DNA of 64,000 nucleotides from an uncultured Candidatus Poseidoniales archaeon (GCA_000246735.1 CM001443.1:143669-207668); one strand, 5' to 3'; numbered from the stretch's first letter, positions 14,596 to 22,699 are shown. Made by a program: numbers and translations. Notes: generated by a model from the letters alone, not told the origin.

Positions 14596-16656
14596 ATGTT
14601 CTTTTTTGCTGGTGTCGGGCTTGCATCGATGCGCGTCAAAGAAGACACGACGGATGATTACCTCGTTGCTGGACGCGGTATGCATCCAGGATTGGCTGCA
14701 CTTTCGGCCGTCAGCACATGGAACTCCGGCTACATGTTCATCGGTTTCATCGGTTTCATCTACGTTCAAGGCTACTCTGCGATTTGGATTGCGTTGGTGT
14801 CGACCATCGGGCAATTGGTAGCATGGATTTGGCTCTACAAGTACATCCAGAAAGAAGGAGAGGAACGGGGTATTCGCTCGCTCACATCTCTTGTTTCGAG
14901 CACAACCGGCTCACCTGAAGCAAAGGTTGCAGCGGTCCTATCGGTTCTTTTCCTCTCGATCTATGCAGCAGCTCAACTGACTGCAGGTGGTGTTGCCCTC
15001 GAAACTATGCTCAATTGGGCCCCTACAGTTGGTATTCTGATCGGATTCGTGCTTGTTGTGGCGTACTGCTATGCTGGCGGGATTCGTGCCTCAATTTGGA
15101 CTGATGCCGCTCAATCCAGCGTCATGATTGTCGGCTCAACGATCCTCTGCCTTGTTGCAGTCAAGAATTCAGGTGGGCTTTCTGGTTTGCACGATCAGCT
15201 TGCGGCCGTTGATGATTCGATGGTGAGTCTGTTCCCGTCTGGCTTGAGATTCGGGGCTGCCCTCTGGATTGCTGCCTTTTTCTTAGGCGGCTTGGGTGTG
15301 GCGGGACAGCCACAGGTTGTTTCTCGAGTCATGACGCTGAAAGACGACGCTGCTCGAAAGCAAGCGATGGTTTGGTTCTTCGTTTGGCAAACGCCGTTCA
15401 TCGTTTTGATGTTCATTATCGGCCTTGCGTGCCGTGTTTTATTACCCGAGTTGGGCACGGATGGTGCCCAAACTGGGTTGCCATTGTTGGCCATGGAACA
15501 ACTGAGCCCGTTCCTTGGCGGCGTCATCCTCGCATCGATTTTTGCTGCCACAATGTCGACTGCGGACAGTCAAGTCTTGGCTTGCACAGCCGCCATCACC
15601 GATGACGTGAAGTCTGAATGGAGTCAGGACCACAAGAAGACGAAAATGGTCACTCTTGGCATGGCGGTTTTCGCCACGGTGATTTCCCTCGTTGGTCAGC
15701 AGTTCCCAGGGTTCGGCGATTCTGTGTTCAGTCTCGTTGTTCTCGCCGTTTACGGCTTGGGCGCTATTTTTGTCCCGATGATTTTGGTTCGTATGATGGG
15801 GTATGAGCCTGACACAACCCACTCGATTCTAATGATGATGGCCGGATTTTTCGGCGTGATTGGATGGGTAACCTTTGGCCTCGATGGTGCGGACGGGATC
15901 TTCCCCTCAGTGCCTGGTGTCGGCGCTGCATTTGCAACCCACTTCCTCTTGTGCTGGTTGCGCGATGATTCACCTACGAATGCATTCGGGCGATACAGTG
16001 TGCCAGGTCAACAAACGGTGGCTGTTGGGCTCGCAATCTTGCTGGCTGTCGTTGCTGCCACAGAAGTGTCCTACGTCAATTTCGCACCCGATTCAAACGC
16101 TAATGGTGCAGATAGCGGTAAAGCATACACAATGAATTACACCATCGAAGAATGGGAGAAAACGGAAACATTGTTCATTGGAAACGACCAGACTGCGCAG
16201 TTCTCATTCACCTATGACGAGATGTTTACTGCTTCCTTGGGGATTCAGTTTGTCATCTCATATGAGGAAAGCAATGAGGTCGGAACCAGTAACTGTGATG
16301 ATGTGACGGTCGAACCCGACTTTAGCAACACTGCTGGGCCTCATGACGAAGTCGACGATTCTGCAAAGTCCACCTCAACCTGCGATGCTTCTGAACAGCT
16401 GATGGCATCGATTGTCACCGACAACTCTCTTTTGGAGTTCGGTTCAATCCCAGGAACGTACACCGCCAATGGAACCATGAACGAGCTCGAAAATAATGCA
16501 AAGCGAATGAGCAACATCGACCGCATGATGGGATCATATGAGGCGGGCGTGACCGTAGCAACAAATAGCAATCCATTTACTGGGGACTCTGGAGAATCGA
16601 TTACCATCACATGGCGAGCATTGCTGCTCGTACCGGGCGAAATTACTGCTGTCTAA
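14596..16656 (+). CDS. sodium:solute symporter (SSS) family transporter with long C-terminal extracytoplasmic domain
   Basis: DYLVAGRGMHPGLAALSAVSTWNSGYMFIGFIG N-terminal SSS signature, 13+ TM helices, roughly 200-aa Cys-containing hydrophilic C-terminal domain. Confidence 0.75.
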   Translation: MFFFAGVGLASMRVKEDTTDDYLVAGRGMHPGLAALSAVSTWNSGYMFIGFIGFIYVQGYSAIWIALVSTIGQLVAWIWLYKYIQKEGEERGIRSLTSLVSSTTGSPEAKVAAVLSVLFLSIYAAAQLTAGGVALETMLNWAPTVGILIGFVLVVAYCYAGGIRASIWTDAAQSSVMIVGSTILCLVAVKNSGGLSGLHDQLAAVDDSMVSLFPSGLRFGAALWIAAFFLGGLGVAGQPQVVSRVMTLKDDAARKQAMVWFFVWQTPFIVLMFIIGLACRVLLPELGTDGAQTGLPLLAMEQLSPFLGGVILASIFAATMSTADSQVLACTAAITDDVKSEWSQDHKKTKMVTLGMAVFATVISLVGQQFPGFGDSVFSLVVLAVYGLGAIFVPMILVRMMGYEPDTTHSILMMMAGFFGVIGWVTFGLDGADGIFPSVPGVGAAFATHFLLCWLRDDSPTNAFGRYSVPGQQTVAVGLAILLAVVAATEVSYVNFAPDSNANGADSGKAYTMNYTIEEWEKTETLFIGNDQTAQFSFTYDEMFTASLGIQFVISYEESNEVGTSNCDDVTVEPDFSNTAGPHDEVDDSAKSTSTCDASEQLMASIVTDNSLLEFGSIPGTYTANGTMNELENNAKRMSNIDRMMGSYEAGVTVATNSNPFTGDSGESITITWRALLLVPGEITAV

Positions 16657-17505
16657 TCATAGACTGAACGTCTGACCCTGTCGAGCAATGCTCCAACCCG
16701 ACCCAGCGAGAAGGGTCGATGCTTCGCTTTCTGAATCGTACAATGGATTTGTGTGGTTCAGATGAATGAAATAGATTTCAGGATCGTTTTCTTGCCGCGG
16801 TCCGAGCATCTCGAGGGTTTTGCTGACTGGAGGATGGGGGACCTTGTCTTGGTTGCGCCCAGCAAGTTCGTTGATCGACCAAAAAGTACCATCAATCAAA
16901 GCAATCTCCACATCAAGTGACGCCAACCAAGAGCGTATGCTGTCGTGGTGATGGCGTGCGAGTGTCTCTTCCCATGTGTCGTGATCAGGGAGGAACAGCA
17001 AGGAGCGGTTTGGCCCACGTATCACGAAAGCGTGCATGTCTGAGAGTTCATCGCGATGGGGTACACGGATCGGTTGGGCAATCACATGTTCACTGAGTTG
17101 TATTCGATCGCCATCATGGAACACCTTTGCATCAAAGACGCCTTGCTCGACCATGAGGGCCCATTGGGGGGTTCGATCGATGAGGTGCTCCATTTCACTC
17201 GAAGTGTGGAGGTTCACGTTTCTGGCGTTCATGGTTTCACGGCCAAACAAGCCCAAACCATCGACATGGCCAAAGTGAGCGTGGGTGAGTAACACATTGT
17301 CGATCGTTGATTGGCCCCAAACCGTCAATTGCTGACCTAGAAAACGAGTCGCCTCAATCAGGTGGTTTACATTGCCATCTGTGATCCCAAGAGCCACAGG
17401 GTAGGACGCGTCTTCTGGAGCGAGTCCAACACAACAGGGGCGTGTGCAACCGGCTTGCGGTCGGCCGCCGTCTTGTGCTAAGCCAAGCAATGTCACTTCG
17501 ACCAT
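16657..17505 (-). CDS. metallo-beta-lactamase-fold hydrolase, PqqB-like
   Basis: LTHAHFGHVDGL (HxHxDH-type metal site) and downstream His/Asp ligands; 1-bp spacing to the convergent symporter stop. Confidence 0.6.
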   Translation of the reverse strand: MVEVTLLGLAQDGGRPQAGCTRPCCVGLAPEDASYPVALGITDGNVNHLIEATRFLGQQLTVWGQSTIDNVLLTHAHFGHVDGLGLFGRETMNARNVNLHTSSEMEHLIDRTPQWALMVEQGVFDAKVFHDGDRIQLSEHVIAQPIRVPHRDELSDMHAFVIRGPNRSLLFLPDHDTWEETLARHHHDSIRSWLASLDVEIALIDGTFWSINELAGRNQDKVPHPPVSKTLEMLGPRQENDPEIYFIHLNHTNPLYDSESEASTLLAGSGWSIARQGQTFSL

Positions 17506-17543
17506 GTGACTGCCAGCAAGGGCCTCGGCATCAAATCATCCAT

Positions 17544-19019
17544 TCACTGGACGTATGCGTTGGCTGCTTCTTGGGCGGTGGCCCCGTAAGGTGTGACACG
17601 GTACGCCATGCCGCGTCGCTTGAGGATGTCCTTCAGTGAAGCGGTGAGGTCTTCCTTCGTGATGAGTTCTCGGTCATCGGATAGCGAGGCGATGAGCGCA
17701 GACTGAACGACTTCTCGCAACCACGCACCGGTAAGACCATCGCTTGACTTAGCAAGACGTTCGATTGCCTCGCGGTTCACCGTTGGAGCGGTGTTTATTG
17801 GTTTCAAATGTTGGTGAAGGATGTGGTAGCGTTGCTCCTTATCGGGCAAGCCAACCTCGACAATGCGGTCAAATCGACCTGGTCGGTCGGCGATTGCAGG
17901 GTCGATTTTGTTCGAATGGTTGGTTGTTGCAAGGGTGATGACGCCGTGATTGGGCACAACGCCGTCCATAGACTGGAGGAATTCGCCCAAAAGTGGATGG
18001 TCGGAAGCACGCCGATCAAGAGCCCCTGCAGTATCGATGTCCTCGATGATGAGCAGGGTTGGCGATAATTTCCGAGCCAGCTCGTAGCACTTCTTGATGT
18101 CTTGACGCCCGGTGATCATCTCAGCAGAGATGAGGATGCAGGTGATGTCGGAGTGAGCGGCAAGCCACTTTGCAATCATGGTCTTCCCGGTCCCCGGAGG
18201 ACCTGCCAAGATGACGCCCCGTGAGTTTGCCAGACCGAGTTCCTTCAGCTTCGGCATGGCTTTTTGGAATGTGATGATGTCCTTCCAAAGGGTTTCTTTG
18301 ACCACTGGGTCCCAGGCAAGCAGAGCGTCAATGTTGGTGTCCCGTTCGACGAAGTTGTACTTCAAGTCAAAGAAGGCCTGGTTGAGTGGTCCGTTTTCGT
18401 AAAAATCCTCTTCCAATTGGTTGATGAAGTTGGTGAAGTCGTACCGTTCTGTGTTCATGCTGTGACCGGTTGGTGTATGGATGGTGATGCGGTGATCACC
18501 GTCGCCGTCAACAGAGGAAATTAGGGTGAAACGGTGCGCTGGGTCGACCTTGCTTTGGTAGAACCGTGTGCCGATGACCATGATGCGCTGACGTTGTTTA
18601 CCCTGCAGTGCGATGGTATCGTACATGCATGGGCGGAGAATTCCATCTTCAATTGAAAATTCCTCACTTACCTCATATTCCGGTTCGAGGTAGCTGTCGA
18701 GGTGCATCTTCATGAGCGCCCCCAAGTGGCCTTTCCAGTAGCGTGAATCGCGTTGGGTTTTGATTGCGTTGAGGAACGTGAACATCTTTGAATCAAACAT
18801 GTTTTGCCGGGTTTGCTTTGGCAGCAATGCATGTGCGGCTGCCTTCGCATCTGCATACGCCTTCATATCGATTGAAACTCGCCCCAAGGACGATTCAATC
18901 GTAAAGACGGGGTCCATTTTTTTCTCTTGCTCTTGCTTCTTTTCTTCGTCCATACGTGTCACACTTCCTTTGCTTTGCCCGACGCTTATGCCCCAATTGG
19001 GGGTTATATTCGTCGCCAC
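17544..19019 (-). CDS. AAA+ ATPase (classical AAA clade, single ATPase domain) with unique 250-aa N-terminal domain
   Basis: Walker A GPPGTGKT, Walker B LLIIEDID, second region of homology TTNHSNKIDPAIADRPGRFDR; N-terminal 250 aa has no recognisable domain. Confidence 0.85.
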   Translation of the reverse strand: MATNITPNWGISVGQSKGSVTRMDEEKKQEQEKKMDPVFTIESSLGRVSIDMKAYADAKAAAHALLPKQTRQNMFDSKMFTFLNAIKTQRDSRYWKGHLGALMKMHLDSYLEPEYEVSEEFSIEDGILRPCMYDTIALQGKQRQRIMVIGTRFYQSKVDPAHRFTLISSVDGDGDHRITIHTPTGHSMNTERYDFTNFINQLEEDFYENGPLNQAFFDLKYNFVERDTNIDALLAWDPVVKETLWKDIITFQKAMPKLKELGLANSRGVILAGPPGTGKTMIAKWLAAHSDITCILISAEMITGRQDIKKCYELARKLSPTLLIIEDIDTAGALDRRASDHPLLGEFLQSMDGVVPNHGVITLATTNHSNKIDPAIADRPGRFDRIVEVGLPDKEQRYHILHQHLKPINTAPTVNREAIERLAKSSDGLTGAWLREVVQSALIASLSDDRELITKEDLTASLKDILKRRGMAYRVTPYGATAQEAANAYVQ

Positions 19020-19120
19020 AGGAATAACCTCCGAGGGTATATGAAGGCGCGAAAGGATGTGACCATCGCCCGCGAAGGAATCAAACGACAGGGGTGGCTC
19101 GATGTGTTTGAGGGGAGTTC

Positions 19121-20875
19121 ATGGCAGGTCCATCCAAAGTTGAATTTCCAGGGCAGAAAAAGCAACGCGTCCGCATGCGCGGGACGAAGCACGCCAACGA
19201 AGCCACAGCGAATCGTATCAAGCGAGAGTTGGCACAATTGCTCGAAGATCCGGAAGAAAAACTTCCCACAATGATGTGGAAGGGTCGACTTCGTTGGGGC
19301 CGGAAAGATCCTGTGACGAAAACGCTCAACGAACTCAAAATTATCATCAAGAAAAAGAACGATGTTCGTTGGCTTGGAAAGCGAATGATGGCAAAGCGCG
19401 GCGATCCTGTTGCCAAGGCCTTTGCCGGTTCACTGCACGCCGCTCACGATGAAGATTTTACCATGGTTGGGAAGTTCAGTTCGGGTTCCTTCGGAGGAGC
19501 GTCGTTCATCCGACGTGGAGATGGTAAGCAAGGCTACCTTGCCGGTCTGCAAAACCATTCACACCTCACACTGCGCATGCTACCGTGGGAAGATCATGCC
19601 AAGCGAGGTATGTACTTCTTCACCTGGAAAGGTGGCTTTGTATGCACTGGGCCGAACCCCTCGCCTCCGGACGAATGGCTCGAAGATGTCCTCGATCGAT
19701 CACGATTTGATTTCACCAAAGACGATGAAATCCCGCTCCCGGTTTGGGTCACAAACGATCTCGATCCGAACGCAGTGTTGGAATTCAATCCAAGCGGAGA
19801 TGGATACGTCCGTTTCTCGTTCAAACACGGGCCTGTTGTGGCGATCGGTTTTGATGCACTTGGGGAATCTGGGAAGAAAGAAGCCTCCTTCATTCACCAC
19901 CTTGCTCTTTCGATGCTCCCTCCCTTCTTGCCTTCAATCCTCACGATTGAAGCAAACTGGGCGCCAAAAGGATGGCCTGAAGGAAAGGCACTTCCCGAGG
20001 CTTCTGCAGAAGGTATCGACAAGGTCATCGATGCATGGCAAGGCCTCACAATGAATGAAGGGTTGATTGCCATGGCAGTTCAACGGGCTGTTATTGACGC
20101 TATTGACGAAGGATTGGTCCTCGGAGATATGTGGATTGAAGGCAACGATCTCGACACTATCGAACAGGGTCTTGCCGACCATGCTGGGTCAATCGATGAA
20201 CGCCATCTTACCGCCCACATGCTCCTTGCTTCAATGAGCGAAGGCCCGACTGATGAAGTTGGAATGAGAATCAATCCAAGAGGCGATATCGCTGACCGCA
20301 AGGGTCAGGCGTTAGAAATTATGACTGGTACAAGCTGTGGAAATATTCTCGGCACACTTTGGGAAAAATGGGGCATGGCGGGCCTGGCTGGACTCGGGAT
20401 TGAAGGCGAAGAGGCTGAAGAAATCTGGAAGAAGCAGAACAAGAAACCCCAGCCTTTCGGCACCTTCCTCAAAGGCCTTGATTCTGCGCGAAGTCAAGCG
20501 CGCCGCGTGGCTCGATTCCCGACTCGGAGTGGAGAGTTTAGTGGCGCCGCAGGTACAATTCACGACCTTGTTCTCCAAGGTCTGCTCGATGGAATCGGAA
20601 AAGCTGAGCGTGTGGCAACGTCTCGTCATGCATCGATCGATGAAGCAGCCGCCTCATGGGCGTGGTTGCTTGCTGCAGGTCGCTCGGCCGGGCAAGATTG
20701 GCACTTTGAATCCAATGCAAGGGATCGTGCCGGGGCTTGGCTCGCCGCAACGAAAACCTTGCTTGCCGCAGGCGAATCCTTGCTTGCTACTGAGCCTGAT
20801 GAAGTCGATGGATTAAGAATTGAATGGCAAAGTGCCTTCGACGCATTGAAGGTCGTCACAGGCGAATCCATCTGA
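19121..20875 (+). CDS. hypothetical protein (584 aa), predicted largely alpha-helical, no family recognised; divergently paired with the AAA+ ATPase
   Basis: long ORF with protein-like composition; 100-bp divergent spacer containing two TATA-like boxes (ggttatatt, gggtatatg). Confidence 0.55.
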   Translation: MAGPSKVEFPGQKKQRVRMRGTKHANEATANRIKRELAQLLEDPEEKLPTMMWKGRLRWGRKDPVTKTLNELKIIIKKKNDVRWLGKRMMAKRGDPVAKAFAGSLHAAHDEDFTMVGKFSSGSFGGASFIRRGDGKQGYLAGLQNHSHLTLRMLPWEDHAKRGMYFFTWKGGFVCTGPNPSPPDEWLEDVLDRSRFDFTKDDEIPLPVWVTNDLDPNAVLEFNPSGDGYVRFSFKHGPVVAIGFDALGESGKKEASFIHHLALSMLPPFLPSILTIEANWAPKGWPEGKALPEASAEGIDKVIDAWQGLTMNEGLIAMAVQRAVIDAIDEGLVLGDMWIEGNDLDTIEQGLADHAGSIDERHLTAHMLLASMSEGPTDEVGMRINPRGDIADRKGQALEIMTGTSCGNILGTLWEKWGMAGLAGLGIEGEEAEEIWKKQNKKPQPFGTFLKGLDSARSQARRVARFPTRSGEFSGAAGTIHDLVLQGLLDGIGKAERVATSRHASIDEAAASWAWLLAAGRSAGQDWHFESNARDRAGAWLAATKTLLAAGESLLATEPDEVDGLRIEWQSAFDALKVVTGESI

Positions 20876-20881
20876 TTGGCC

Positions 20882-21484
20882 TCAATGAGGCAACAGAATC
20901 CAAATCGCCACACCGACGAGTGAGGCGCCCAAAGCTATGTTCAGTCGCTTTGCATTCTGTTGGGAACTGAACGAGCGTCGCAAGGCAACGCCGAATCCGG
21001 CCCAAACCAGGACTGCTGGGTATCCAGCGAAGGCATTGAGTGCCACAAGCGCCACTTTCGCAGTAATTCCTTGGCCAAACAGAGTCCCCCATGTGGCCAT
21101 GATGGCGAGGAAATGAATCCATGCCTTACCGTTGACAAATTGCAACATGGCACCGGTAAGAAATCCTAATTGATCCGTGCTCTGTGCTTCCTCAAGTGGT
21201 TTCGTTTCCGATTTCGCAATTACATAACCAAGGTAAGCGATGTAAGCGGCCCCCGCATAGGTTAAGAGATTGAAGAAGCCTTGATTGGATTCGATGGCGG
21301 TGATAGCGACGCCCACGATCACGCCAAGAACCGACCATCCAGTGAGCATGCCAAGCGTGAGAGGGATGGTTGAGCGGAAGCCGTGCTGGGCACCATGTGC
21401 AGCGCAGAGCATGTTGTTAGGCCCTGGCGTGAAACACATTGGTATGATGAAGACGAGCAACGCAATCAGCGCACTGGTGTCCAT
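20882..21484 (-). CDS. LysE/RhtB-family amino-acid exporter
   Basis: N-terminal LIALLVFIIPMCFTPGPNN signature, 6 TM, about 200 aa. Confidence 0.75.
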   Translation of the reverse strand: MDTSALIALLVFIIPMCFTPGPNNMLCAAHGAQHGFRSTIPLTLGMLTGWSVLGVIVGVAITAIESNQGFFNLLTYAGAAYIAYLGYVIAKSETKPLEEAQSTDQLGFLTGAMLQFVNGKAWIHFLAIMATWGTLFGQGITAKVALVALNAFAGYPAVLVWAGFGVALRRSFSSQQNAKRLNIALGASLVGVAIWILLPH

Positions 21485-21508
21485 TTTTCATACCTCGATT
21501 GGAGCGAT

Positions 21509-22699
21509 TCAGACGTTCGCAAATCCACGCTCGATATCTGCCCACAGATCTTCGACGTCTTCGATTCCAATGCTCATTCGCACATAGCCGGGTACCAAGC
21601 CTGCTGCATGCCGAACATCTTCTGGGATCATCATGTGGCTGGAATTGAAGGGGCACTCGACCAGTGATTCAACGCCACCAAGGCTTGTTGCTTCGTAGAT
21701 CATTGTCAGGCCTCGCATGAATTTTAGAGCCGCTTCATCGCCGCCTTTAACGACAAATCCGATCATGCCTGTACCCTTAGGCATCACGCGCTGAGCGACT
21801 TCGTAATCATCATGGGAAGGGAGAGCCGGGTGGTTCACTCGCTCGATCATCGGGTGCGCTTCAAATCGTTGCGCAAGGGTGAATGCGTTGGAGCAAATCG
21901 TTGGCATGCGGACGTGAAGTGTCCTCATACCACGTTCCAAAAGATAGCTACTATGTGGGTCTGGCGAGCCGCCGAAGTGCACTTTGCGTGGGAAAATTTG
22001 AGCGATTAATTCCTTCGATCCAATAACAGCTCCACCGATGATGTCTGAATGGCCACCAAGATATTTGGTGGTTGAATGAATTACCAAGTCAACGCCCATG
22101 GACAACGGTTGGCATGCCCATGGTGAGGCGAAGGTGTTGTCAATGATGCACAACAAATTATGTCGCTTTGCGACGTCGACCATTGCGGGAATGTCACAGA
22201 CTTTCAACACTGGGTTGGTCAGTGTTTCGATGTAGATGAGTTTGGTGTTGGGTTGTATGGCTGCTTCGTAGGCTGCTGGATCTCGCATATCTGCCATGGT
22301 TGTTTCAATGCCAAAACGAGGGAGTTCTTCGGTCAAGAGACCGTACGTGCCGCCATAAACGTCGGTGGAGGCGACAACGTGGTCGCCAGAGCTGAGGAGG
22401 GACATCAGGGTGGTAGAAATTGCTGCCATTCCAGAAGCAAATGTTTCAGCGTCTTCTCCGCCTTCCATAGCGGTGAGTTTCTGAGCCGCTGCATCCGAGT
22501 TCACGGTTGAAAGGCGAGCGTAGAGAAGGGTGTGTTGTGCGCCTGCAGCCCATCCAGCATAGCGTTCATCTGTGAGTTTGTACGTCGAAGATTGAAAAAT
22601 TGGTGTGTTCACGGCATTCCCAATATGGTTGGTTCCGCTGTGAACTGCTTTGCTTCCAAAACCTTGGAAGTCGGTTGATTTTTTATCGCCCATCTTCAT
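21509..22699 (-). CDS. PLP-dependent Cys/Met-metabolism enzyme (O-acetylhomoserine sulfhydrylase / cystathionine gamma-synthase / gamma-lyase family)
   Basis: HSTTKYLGGHSDIIGGAV (PLP-lysine loop), GGEDAETFASGMAAI, overall gamma-family architecture. Confidence 0.85.
   Translation of the reverse strand: MKMGDKKSTDFQGFGSKAVHSGTNHIGNAVNTPIFQSSTYKLTDERYAGWAAGAQHTLLYARLSTVNSDAAAQKLTAMEGGEDAETFASGMAAISTTLMSLLSSGDHVVASTDVYGGTYGLLTEELPRFGIETTMADMRDPAAYEAAIQPNTKLIYIETLTNPVLKVCDIPAMVDVAKRHNLLCIIDNTFASPWACQPLSMGVDLVIHSTTKYLGGHSDIIGGAVIGSKELIAQIFPRKVHFGGSPDPHSSYLLERGMRTLHVRMPTICSNAFTLAQRFEAHPMIERVNHPALPSHDDYEVAQRVMPKGTGMIGFVVKGGDEAALKFMRGLTMIYEATSLGGVESLVECPFNSSHMMIPEDVRHAAGLVPGYVRMSIGIEDVEDLWADIERGFANV

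Follow-up and report, generated by a model that had tools for sequence, protein, structure and literature searches.

Among classical AAA proteins, YjoB and Bcs1 are exceptional in carrying Glu-Asp (ED) in the Walker B motif (PMC9565160). The N-domain of YjoB is composed of an antiparallel sheet, a hairpin, and helices; ahead of its AAA core, YjoB additionally has the strands S8 and S9 and the helices H5 and H6 (PMC9565160), and Bcs1 has a seven-stranded AAA sheet (PMC9565160; reviewed in PMC7994207). Here, we analyzed two divergent genes in a stretch of 64,000 nucleotides from an uncultured Candidatus Poseidoniales archaeon (GCA_000246735.1 CM001443.1:143669-207668; hereafter, the window): a 491-aa open reading frame (ORF) that encodes an AAA ATPase (17544-19019, minus strand; hereafter, the window AAA) and a 584-aa ORF that encodes a soluble protein, P584 (19121-20875, plus strand), with 101 bp between them. 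With moderate confidence, we regard them as independent genes that became neighbors once, in the ancestor of one Poseidoniaceae sub-clade, and the ATPase as a chamber-forming, non-threading protein of the Bcs1/YjoB type. If this assignment is true, the non-threading ED Walker B class, of which, to our knowledge, only the mitochondrial translocase and the Bacillales chaperone have solved structures so far, extends to abundant marine archaea, in a family large enough for comparative work.

The AAA ATPase and its likeness to YjoB and Bcs1

Both ORFs had been reported, with exact coordinates, in an initial annotation made from the sequence alone. The AAA ORF begins at a GTG (19019); its probable true start is the ATG at 18953 (M23, MDEEKK...), which is kept in eight aligned relatives and yields a protein of 469 aa, and gene callers use the equivalent start (469-479 aa). 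The distance of 100 bp first given between the two starts holds for the listed ORFs; counted from this probable start, the intergenic spacer is about 167 bp.

Pfam assigned AAA (PF00004) to aa 269-390 (E = 1.2e-23, above the gathering score) and AAA_lid_3 (PF17862) to aa 419-459, and found no domain besides this module and its lid. The large and lid subdomains of the AAA+ module together span aa 256-472 (17604-18254; this and all other AAA features lie on the minus strand), as also delimited by the PAN, FtsH, and CDC48 models and by PDB alignments. Family alignment and motif mapping placed Walker A, GPPGTGKT, at aa 273-280 (18180-18203), and the Walker B variant, IIEDID, at aa 324-329 (18033-18050). 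The second region of homology (SRH; aa 365-385, 17865-17927) runs from the sensor-1 motif TTNH (aa 365-368, 17916-17927) to the two Arg fingers in RPGRFDR (aa 379-385, 17865-17885). All four motifs are invariant in 20 aligned family members. Walker A and B, sensor 1, an SRH with two Arg fingers, and AAA_lid_3 place the protein in the classical AAA clade (PF00004), and its initial description as a single-module classical AAA protein was correct.

The label “textbook”, however, does not apply. Residue-level alignment to the ifiDEid motif of Cdc48 places E326-D327 opposite the D-E of Cdc48; the order of the two acidic residues is that of the ED class. At the position of pore loop 1 (SAEMITGRQD, aa 298-307, 18099-18128), HMMER alignment to Cdc48 D1/D2 revealed a loop about five residues shorter than that of Cdc48, with gaps opposite KMAGESE and SMWYGESE. 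The loop contains no aromatic residue and no aromatic-hydrophobic-Gly motif, and across the family only EM[IL] is kept. This degenerate pore loop argues against the term unfoldase, which had also been proposed for the protein.

The N-terminal region (aa 1-255) matched nothing in Pfam, NCBIfam, or the PDB sequences, and a profile of the N-domain likewise matched nothing in the PDB sequences or Pfam. Family alignments define an N-terminal alpha/beta domain at aa 36-255 (18255-18914). Its most conserved motif, DFYxNGPLxxAFFDxxYNF (aa 205-223), stands immediately ahead of the AAA core; DSRYWxGxLGxLxKxH, GxRFY, and DxDGDxR are further family-wide motifs. In the AlphaFold model (mean predicted local distance difference test score, pLDDT, of 79.6; about 90 for aa 80-260), the N-domain comprises helices, then a six-stranded beta meander, and finally two short strands and two helices on the way to the AAA core. 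These short strands (aa 216-218 and about 223) and the helices (aa 230-260) precede AAA strand 1; read from the secondary structure of the model, the strands are candidates for the two extra ones that extend the AAA sheet in the Bcs1/YjoB type. The order of strands and helices ahead of the AAA core agrees with the published descriptions of YjoB and Bcs1.

In a Foldseek search of the PDB with the AAA model, YjoB (7w42) gave the highest query-normalized TM-score, 0.49, over 413-444 aligned columns with a root-mean-square deviation (rmsd) of 8.3-8.7 Å. AAA-only matches scored 0.40-0.42 and 26S Rpt subunits 0.39-0.44, the latter with an rmsd of mostly 14-23 Å. Bcs1 was aligned over 443-449 columns with a score of 0.36 and an rmsd of 16 Å. 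The initial annotation had called the N-domain novel; this stands for sequence, but among PDB entries YjoB, which has a Bcs1-like N-domain, matches the model best in structure. A match to Bcs1 had itself been named as evidence against novelty; the fold and the ED signature speak for such a match with moderate strength, and the sequence shows none. PF08740 (BCS1_N) did not match any of 20 full-length family members or 14 N-domains at E-values of up to 1-10. The N-domains of YjoB and Bcs1 likewise have no sequence match to each other.

YjoB (7W42) and the window AAA are both soluble and both carry one classical-clade AAA module after an alpha/beta N-domain of about 160-220 aa without sequence relatives. 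They also share the ED Walker B motif and the lack of a canonical aromatic pore loop 1, and the model suggests that the strands and helices added at the N-edge of the YjoB AAA core have counterparts in the window AAA. However, their N-domains have no detectable sequence similarity, the overall identity is 18-19% (Foldseek), and YjoB is restricted to Bacillales, whereas the window AAA is archaeal. The N-region of the window AAA is also longer, with an extra N-terminal hairpin and two helices, and the protein has a conserved C-terminal tail.

Bcs1/BCS1L (6SH3, 6UKP, 8T7U) resembles the window AAA in the ED Walker B motif, in a beta-rich N-terminal domain, the putative cap, before one AAA module, and in the proposed handling of folded clients in a chamber instead of by threading. 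Bcs1 also has a TTNH-type sensor-1 region. In contrast, the window AAA lacks both marks of Bcs1 proper, the transmembrane anchor and BCS1_N (PF08740): no transmembrane segment was predicted in it or in P584 (maximum Kyte-Doolittle 19-residue scores of 1.23 and 1.34, respectively). The Rieske protein is the client of Bcs1, a heptameric membrane translocase; for the window AAA, neither an equivalent client nor a membrane context is evident.

This comparison, in which the fold was compared over the whole model, suggests with moderate strength that the window AAA is a soluble protein of the Bcs1/YjoB type, that is, a chamber-type chaperone or remodeler and not a threading unfoldase. We would class it as a new archaeal variant of this type, likely a third lineage. 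Whereas gene structures, motifs, family distributions, and synteny were read directly from the sequences, we infer a ring-and-chamber architecture and a chaperone-like mechanism: the N-terminal alpha/beta domain would cap a soluble AAA ring and enclose a chamber, in which a folded or partly folded client would be bound, and ATP hydrolysis would lead to its remodeling or release without threading through the pore.

Gene order around the AAA gene and P584

The names of homologues identify the host as a Poseidoniaceae (marine group II) archaeon, and the neighboring genes for diphthine synthase, geranylgeranyl reductase, and a TYW2 homologue fit an archaeal host. We examined gene order first in the relatives of the window and then by tblastn over 80 species-representative P584 loci. 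The gene that follows the window AAA in the same direction encodes a metallo-beta-lactamase (MBL)-fold protein (16657-17505, minus strand; Lactamase_B_2, weakly PqqB-like, TIGR02108 at 3.6e-17, under the curated cut-off). In about 22 of the 80 loci, an AAA gene separates the MBL gene from P584, and P584 is in every such case at least 69% identical to the window copy. In the same sub-clade, L039 and L011/L012 have no AAA gene at this slot. In all of the approximately 50 loci in which P584 is at most 66% identical, P584 directly faces the MBL gene at a distance of about 100 bp, with no AAA gene. Among Poseidoniaceae loci whose upstream sequence could be read, nearly all have the MBL gene as the neighbor of P584, while a distant full-length P584 homologue (21% identity) has neither MBL nor AAA as a neighbor. 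We also considered the AAA gene as a lineage-specific insertion missing below 84% identity and rejected this, as the gene is also present where P584 is 69-73% identical.

Gene order thus indicates that the adjacency of the AAA gene and P584 is real, clade-specific, and of single origin, and adjacency across divergent lineages, as expected of a two-gene module, was not found. Because it arose once, in one clade, within otherwise fully syntenic genomes, the adjacency carries little information and provides no evidence for a functional module. The initial annotation had proposed a dedicated ATPase/partner module for remodeling or defense; this fails comparative genomics, with P584 standing without AAA in about 50 loci and AAA occurring in other contexts. 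The two genes are not syntenic elsewhere, the very outcome that had been named as telling against the pair, although P584 itself matches no characterized family. We infer the absence of a functional link, and the pair should not go forward as a candidate system.

Nor is the AAA protein an “orphan”, since its N-domain and AAA architecture form a family across Poseidoniales. A search with the N-domain only gave six fragmentary close matches, a misleading picture that the full-length search overturned. The latter returned thousands of AAA proteins, and the best 120 include more than 100 with 88-100% coverage and 44-86% identity. Among these 120, the archaeal-labeled matches were all Poseidoniales or Euryarchaeota, and one match was labeled Deltaproteobacteria. 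A metagenome scan with N-domain patterns added 80 further loci.

Clustering of the neighbors of 83 AAA loci revealed at least six clade-specific contexts: an MscS channel with a helix-turn-helix regulator; a tight operon of a ubiquitin-like protein (Ubl), an E1, and a JAB peptidase; a Rad50/SMC-like ATPase; an HNH endonuclease with a STAND-like NTPase; the arrangement of the window; and an island with a T7-like RNA polymerase. Relatives at 44-49% identity occupy at least five other contexts, with neither P584 nor MBL within up to 8 kb on either side. The AAA copies at the MBL slot are mutually closest (86-54% identity, versus at most 49% for other clades), which fits a single ancestral placement at this slot followed by vertical inheritance. 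Recent horizontal acquisition of the window AAA was ruled out by its GC content (0.526, versus 0.528 in the flanks). Because its GC content matches the flanks and a repeat search around the gene found no flanking or terminal repeats and no insertion scars, the window AAA is a resident gene and not a recent insertion.

In one AAA clade, the AAA gene is the last of a tight co-directional operon (L135:5182-8603, L137:3528-6949, L144:857-4438). Its genes encode, in order, a Ubl-like protein of 122 aa that contains an internal GG, a ThiF-type E1 (PF00899, 4.7e-15), a JAB peptidase (HTHPRGSAYWSQTD), and the AAA protein. This operon is possibly an archaeal ubiquitin-like conjugation system tied to the AAA family.

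The junction of the AAA and MBL genes appears, from the sequences compared, to be an insertion hot spot. An island of approximately 8.4 kb (L020:260-8656; also in L019 and L160) separates the resident AAA gene from MBL; its GC content is 39-43%, compared with 50-51% for the flanking sequence. Besides small ORFs, it carries genes for a T7-like single-subunit RNA polymerase (PF00940, 1250 aa, HDSFGTH), a membrane protein of 385 aa, and a second AAA paralogue (551 aa). In L159 (1902-5945), the same place is taken by another single-subunit RNA polymerase (1347 aa); phage-type RNA polymerases were unexpected in marine group II archaeal genomes. The 3' end of the resident AAA gene in L185 (11440-12177) is 100% identical to that in L020 (190 onward) save a 26-bp indel, and the two sequences diverge immediately thereafter.

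Alternative explanations

Two groups of observations weigh against our interpretation of independent genes and a Bcs1/YjoB-type ATPase. By sequence, the AAA module is 28-33% identical to PAN, FtsH, and Cdc48, compared with 16-19% to YjoB and Bcs1 in the Foldseek alignments. Because its sequence is so much nearer to the former, the ED motif could be convergent. As for the gene pair, the adjacency has been kept in the sub-clade while the AAA N-domain fell to 44-50% identity and P584 to about 70%. As divergent genes can share regulation, a clade-specific functional link between the two could still exist.

A dedicated two-gene remodeling system, in which P584 would be the substrate, adaptor, or partner of the AAA protein and the two would share a divergent promoter, is unlikely in our judgment. 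The genes do adjoin and diverge from an interval of 101-167 bp that holds an invariant TATA-like box; this arrangement is kept in the 22 or so species representatives with the AAA gene at the slot, and L185 retains it even though the sequence downstream of AAA differs from that of L020. However, about 50 species representatives, as well as distant Thermoplasmatota, have P584 with no AAA gene beside it, the AAA family is found without P584 in its other contexts, and L039 and L011/L012 lack AAA at the slot. The promoter elements of P584 are moreover the same with or without AAA, and the association has a single origin in otherwise fully syntenic genomes. Alternatively, the AAA and MBL genes could be co-transcribed, and the PqqB-like metallo-hydrolase could have the AAA protein as its own dedicated chaperone or as an assembly factor. 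The two genes are co-directional, with a spacer of 38-45 bp that contains an invariant motif and no obvious A/T-rich box, and MBL is still immediately preceded by an AAA-family gene in loci that have no P584 close by (L019, L020, L159). We hold this, too, to be a minor possibility: most Poseidoniaceae have MBL without AAA, other AAA clades have no MBL neighbor, the AAA gene that adjoins MBL in L020 is the low-GC paralogue on the inserted island, with the resident AAA about 8 kb from MBL, and the spacer motif, about 28 nt upstream of the MBL ATG, could be the promoter of MBL itself. A further proposal combines the third, archaeal lineage of chamber-forming Bcs1/YjoB-type ATPases with clients encoded by clade-specific neighbors, namely P584 here and Ubl-conjugated proteins in the Ubl-E1-JAB clade. 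Although we rate it as improbable, it would, if true, make the window pair a client-chaperone couple and offer the first functional handle on the Thermoplasmatota-wide P584. A link of AAA to MBL and a client-chaperone relation with P584 appear about equally likely.

The remaining alternatives concern the ATPase itself. A function of the family in defense or mobile elements, with the window copy as a domesticated remnant, has a small probability in our view. The top PADLOC match was IetA of the IetAS anti-phage system (1.7e-24; NCBIfam, 5e-23), followed by TRIP13, and IetA shares a single AAA module and a short N-region with the window AAA. Other AAA clades adjoin an HNH endonuclease, a STAND-like NTPase, a Rad50/SMC-like ATPase, or the Ubl-E1-JAB operon, and one paralogue stands on the low-GC island with the T7-like RNA polymerase. 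However, the PADLOC matches cover the generic AAA module only and score below PAN or FtsH, and the NCBIfam score for IetA is 81.7 against a cut-off of 510. No gene for an IetS-like serine protease adjoins the window AAA, whose neighbors are the MBL gene and P584; a scan for the N-domain found no relative in 2.9 million viral contigs; and the window copy stands among housekeeping genes, matches the host in GC content, and is not flanked by repeats. Least probable is that the protein unfolds its substrates by conventional threading and, as an alternative to PAN or Cdc48, docks through its C-terminal tail on the 20S proteasome or some other peptidase. The best sequence models for the AAA module are indeed PAN, FtsH, and CDC48 (3e-38, 2e-37, and 8e-34; 28-33% identity to the PAN and FtsH structures), and PAN, FtsH, and Cdc48-VAT share with it an SRH with two Arg fingers and a lid_3 domain. 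Moreover, the tail (aa 473-491, 17547-17603), which may be a docking tail, is disordered in the model (pLDDT <50 for aa 474-491) and ends in the conserved ...ANAYVQ; the family pattern is RRGMAYR, a variable spacer, and a terminal hydrophobic-[Y/S]-V-x. This ending resembles an HbYX motif, which one paralogue (...PIYD) has in its true form, but the Tyr is at -3 instead of -2 and is Ser in many members. The NCBIfam models for PAN, FtsH, and CDC48 match aa 246-468 only, all far under their family cut-offs: 131.8 bits against 500 for PAN (aa 258-468), 129 against 600 for FtsH, and 117 against 803 for CDC48. CdvC scores 68 against 650. Unlike these proteins, the window AAA has one AAA module, no protease domain, the ED motif, and a truncated pore loop 1 without an aromatic residue, and its N-domain is an alpha/beta sheet and not a coiled-coil/OB domain or double-psi barrel. 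The initial exclusion of PAN, Cdc48, Vps4, and FtsH by domain layout was therefore justified by the single AAA module, the lack of any further Pfam domain (such as the MIT domain of Vps4/CdvC or the M41 protease of FtsH) and of transmembrane segments, and the scores under the cut-offs.

P584, intergenic elements, and neighboring genes

Under our preferred interpretation, P584 would be a stand-alone protein of Thermoplasmatota that is inherited vertically and has a conserved promoter and 5' region of its own. It was found in 179 species-representative genomes, nearly all labeled Poseidoniales or a broader archaeal taxon, with the exception of one misbinned contig. An exhaustive profile search yielded 291 cluster representatives and demonstrated conservation across Thermoplasmatota; full-length homologues (500-570 aa) in other Thermoplasmatota are all labeled hypothetical, and one is 21% identical end to end. 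P584 has a disordered basic N-terminal tail (aa 1-22), a highly conserved alpha/beta N-half with a VCTG motif (C175), and a helical C-half (mean pLDDT of 78; about 90 for aa 280-584). The initial description of P584 as probably helical thus fits the C-half but not the N-half, which is mixed alpha/beta in the model. Residues invariant across the whole family are few: P49, L85, A100, Q144, C175, W414, and W527. In this alignment, the VCTG cysteine C175 is the sole obvious candidate catalytic residue, and P584 may be an enzyme or a binding protein built around it.

Searches with the single sequence and with profiles found no match to P584 in Pfam, NCBIfam, PADLOC, or the PDB sequences; the P584 profile gave two PDB-sequence matches at E >0.6, which are noise, and Pfam found nothing credible in 18 close and 10 distant members. 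Foldseek of the model returned no match in the PDB (best E of 0.067, TM-score of 0.10) or among the BFVD viral structures (best E of 0.59). Within the libraries searched, P584 is therefore without a recognizable motif or fold, as first described, and both proteins of the pair are uncharacterized. P584 ranks among the better conserved proteins specific to Thermoplasmatota, has a conserved 5' element of its own, and is a reasonable target for structural genomics.

The divergent intergenic region (19020-19120) contains the TATA-like GTATATGAA (19037-19045), the conserved CGAAGGAATCAAAC (19073-19086), and a Shine-Dalgarno (SD)-like GAGGGGA (19110-19116). The initial annotation had reported back-to-back TATA-like boxes. 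GTATATGAA is invariant in eight aligned relatives, but TTATAT (19004-19009), which lies just within the listed AAA ORF, is not conserved in them. The element CGAAGGNCTCAAAC (19073-19086 in the window; about 50 bp upstream of P584 in L001-L102) is kept in every Poseidoniaceae P584 locus examined, AAA or no AAA, and the SD-like GAGGGG that follows it is conserved upstream of P584 in all lineages. Given its position near the expected transcription start, CGAAGGNCTCAAAC may be a regulatory or 5'-untranslated-region element. The AAA stop and the MBL start are separated by 38 bp (17506-17543, minus strand); in this spacer, GATG..TTGATG (17529-17543) is invariant across sub-clades with spacers of 38-45 bp. 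Its center lies about 28 nt ahead of the MBL ATG, and the motif may be an RNA element or may act as the promoter of a leaderless MBL transcript. An Rfam scan of 16500-21600 gave no match.

Several archaeal genes in these families carry bacterial names: P584 copies labeled Crocinitomicaceae (P0048, 100% identity) and Candidatus Microthrix (L061, 61%), and an AAA copy labeled Deltaproteobacteria (P0154). These copies are probably from misbinned contigs. In L005 (JGI contig Ga0494229_00127, 558 kb), frameshifts split many genes, including SSF, CGS, and AAA, and short “proteins” such as P0123 (282 aa) are assembly artifacts and not pseudogenes.

A gene for a LysE-family exporter (20882-21484, minus strand) lies between P584 and a cystathionine gamma-synthase-like gene. 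At equivalent positions in L001-L102, this exporter gene is present in the clade of the window and in Poseidonia and absent from many intermediate lineages, and it constitutes a second presence/absence polymorphism at the locus.

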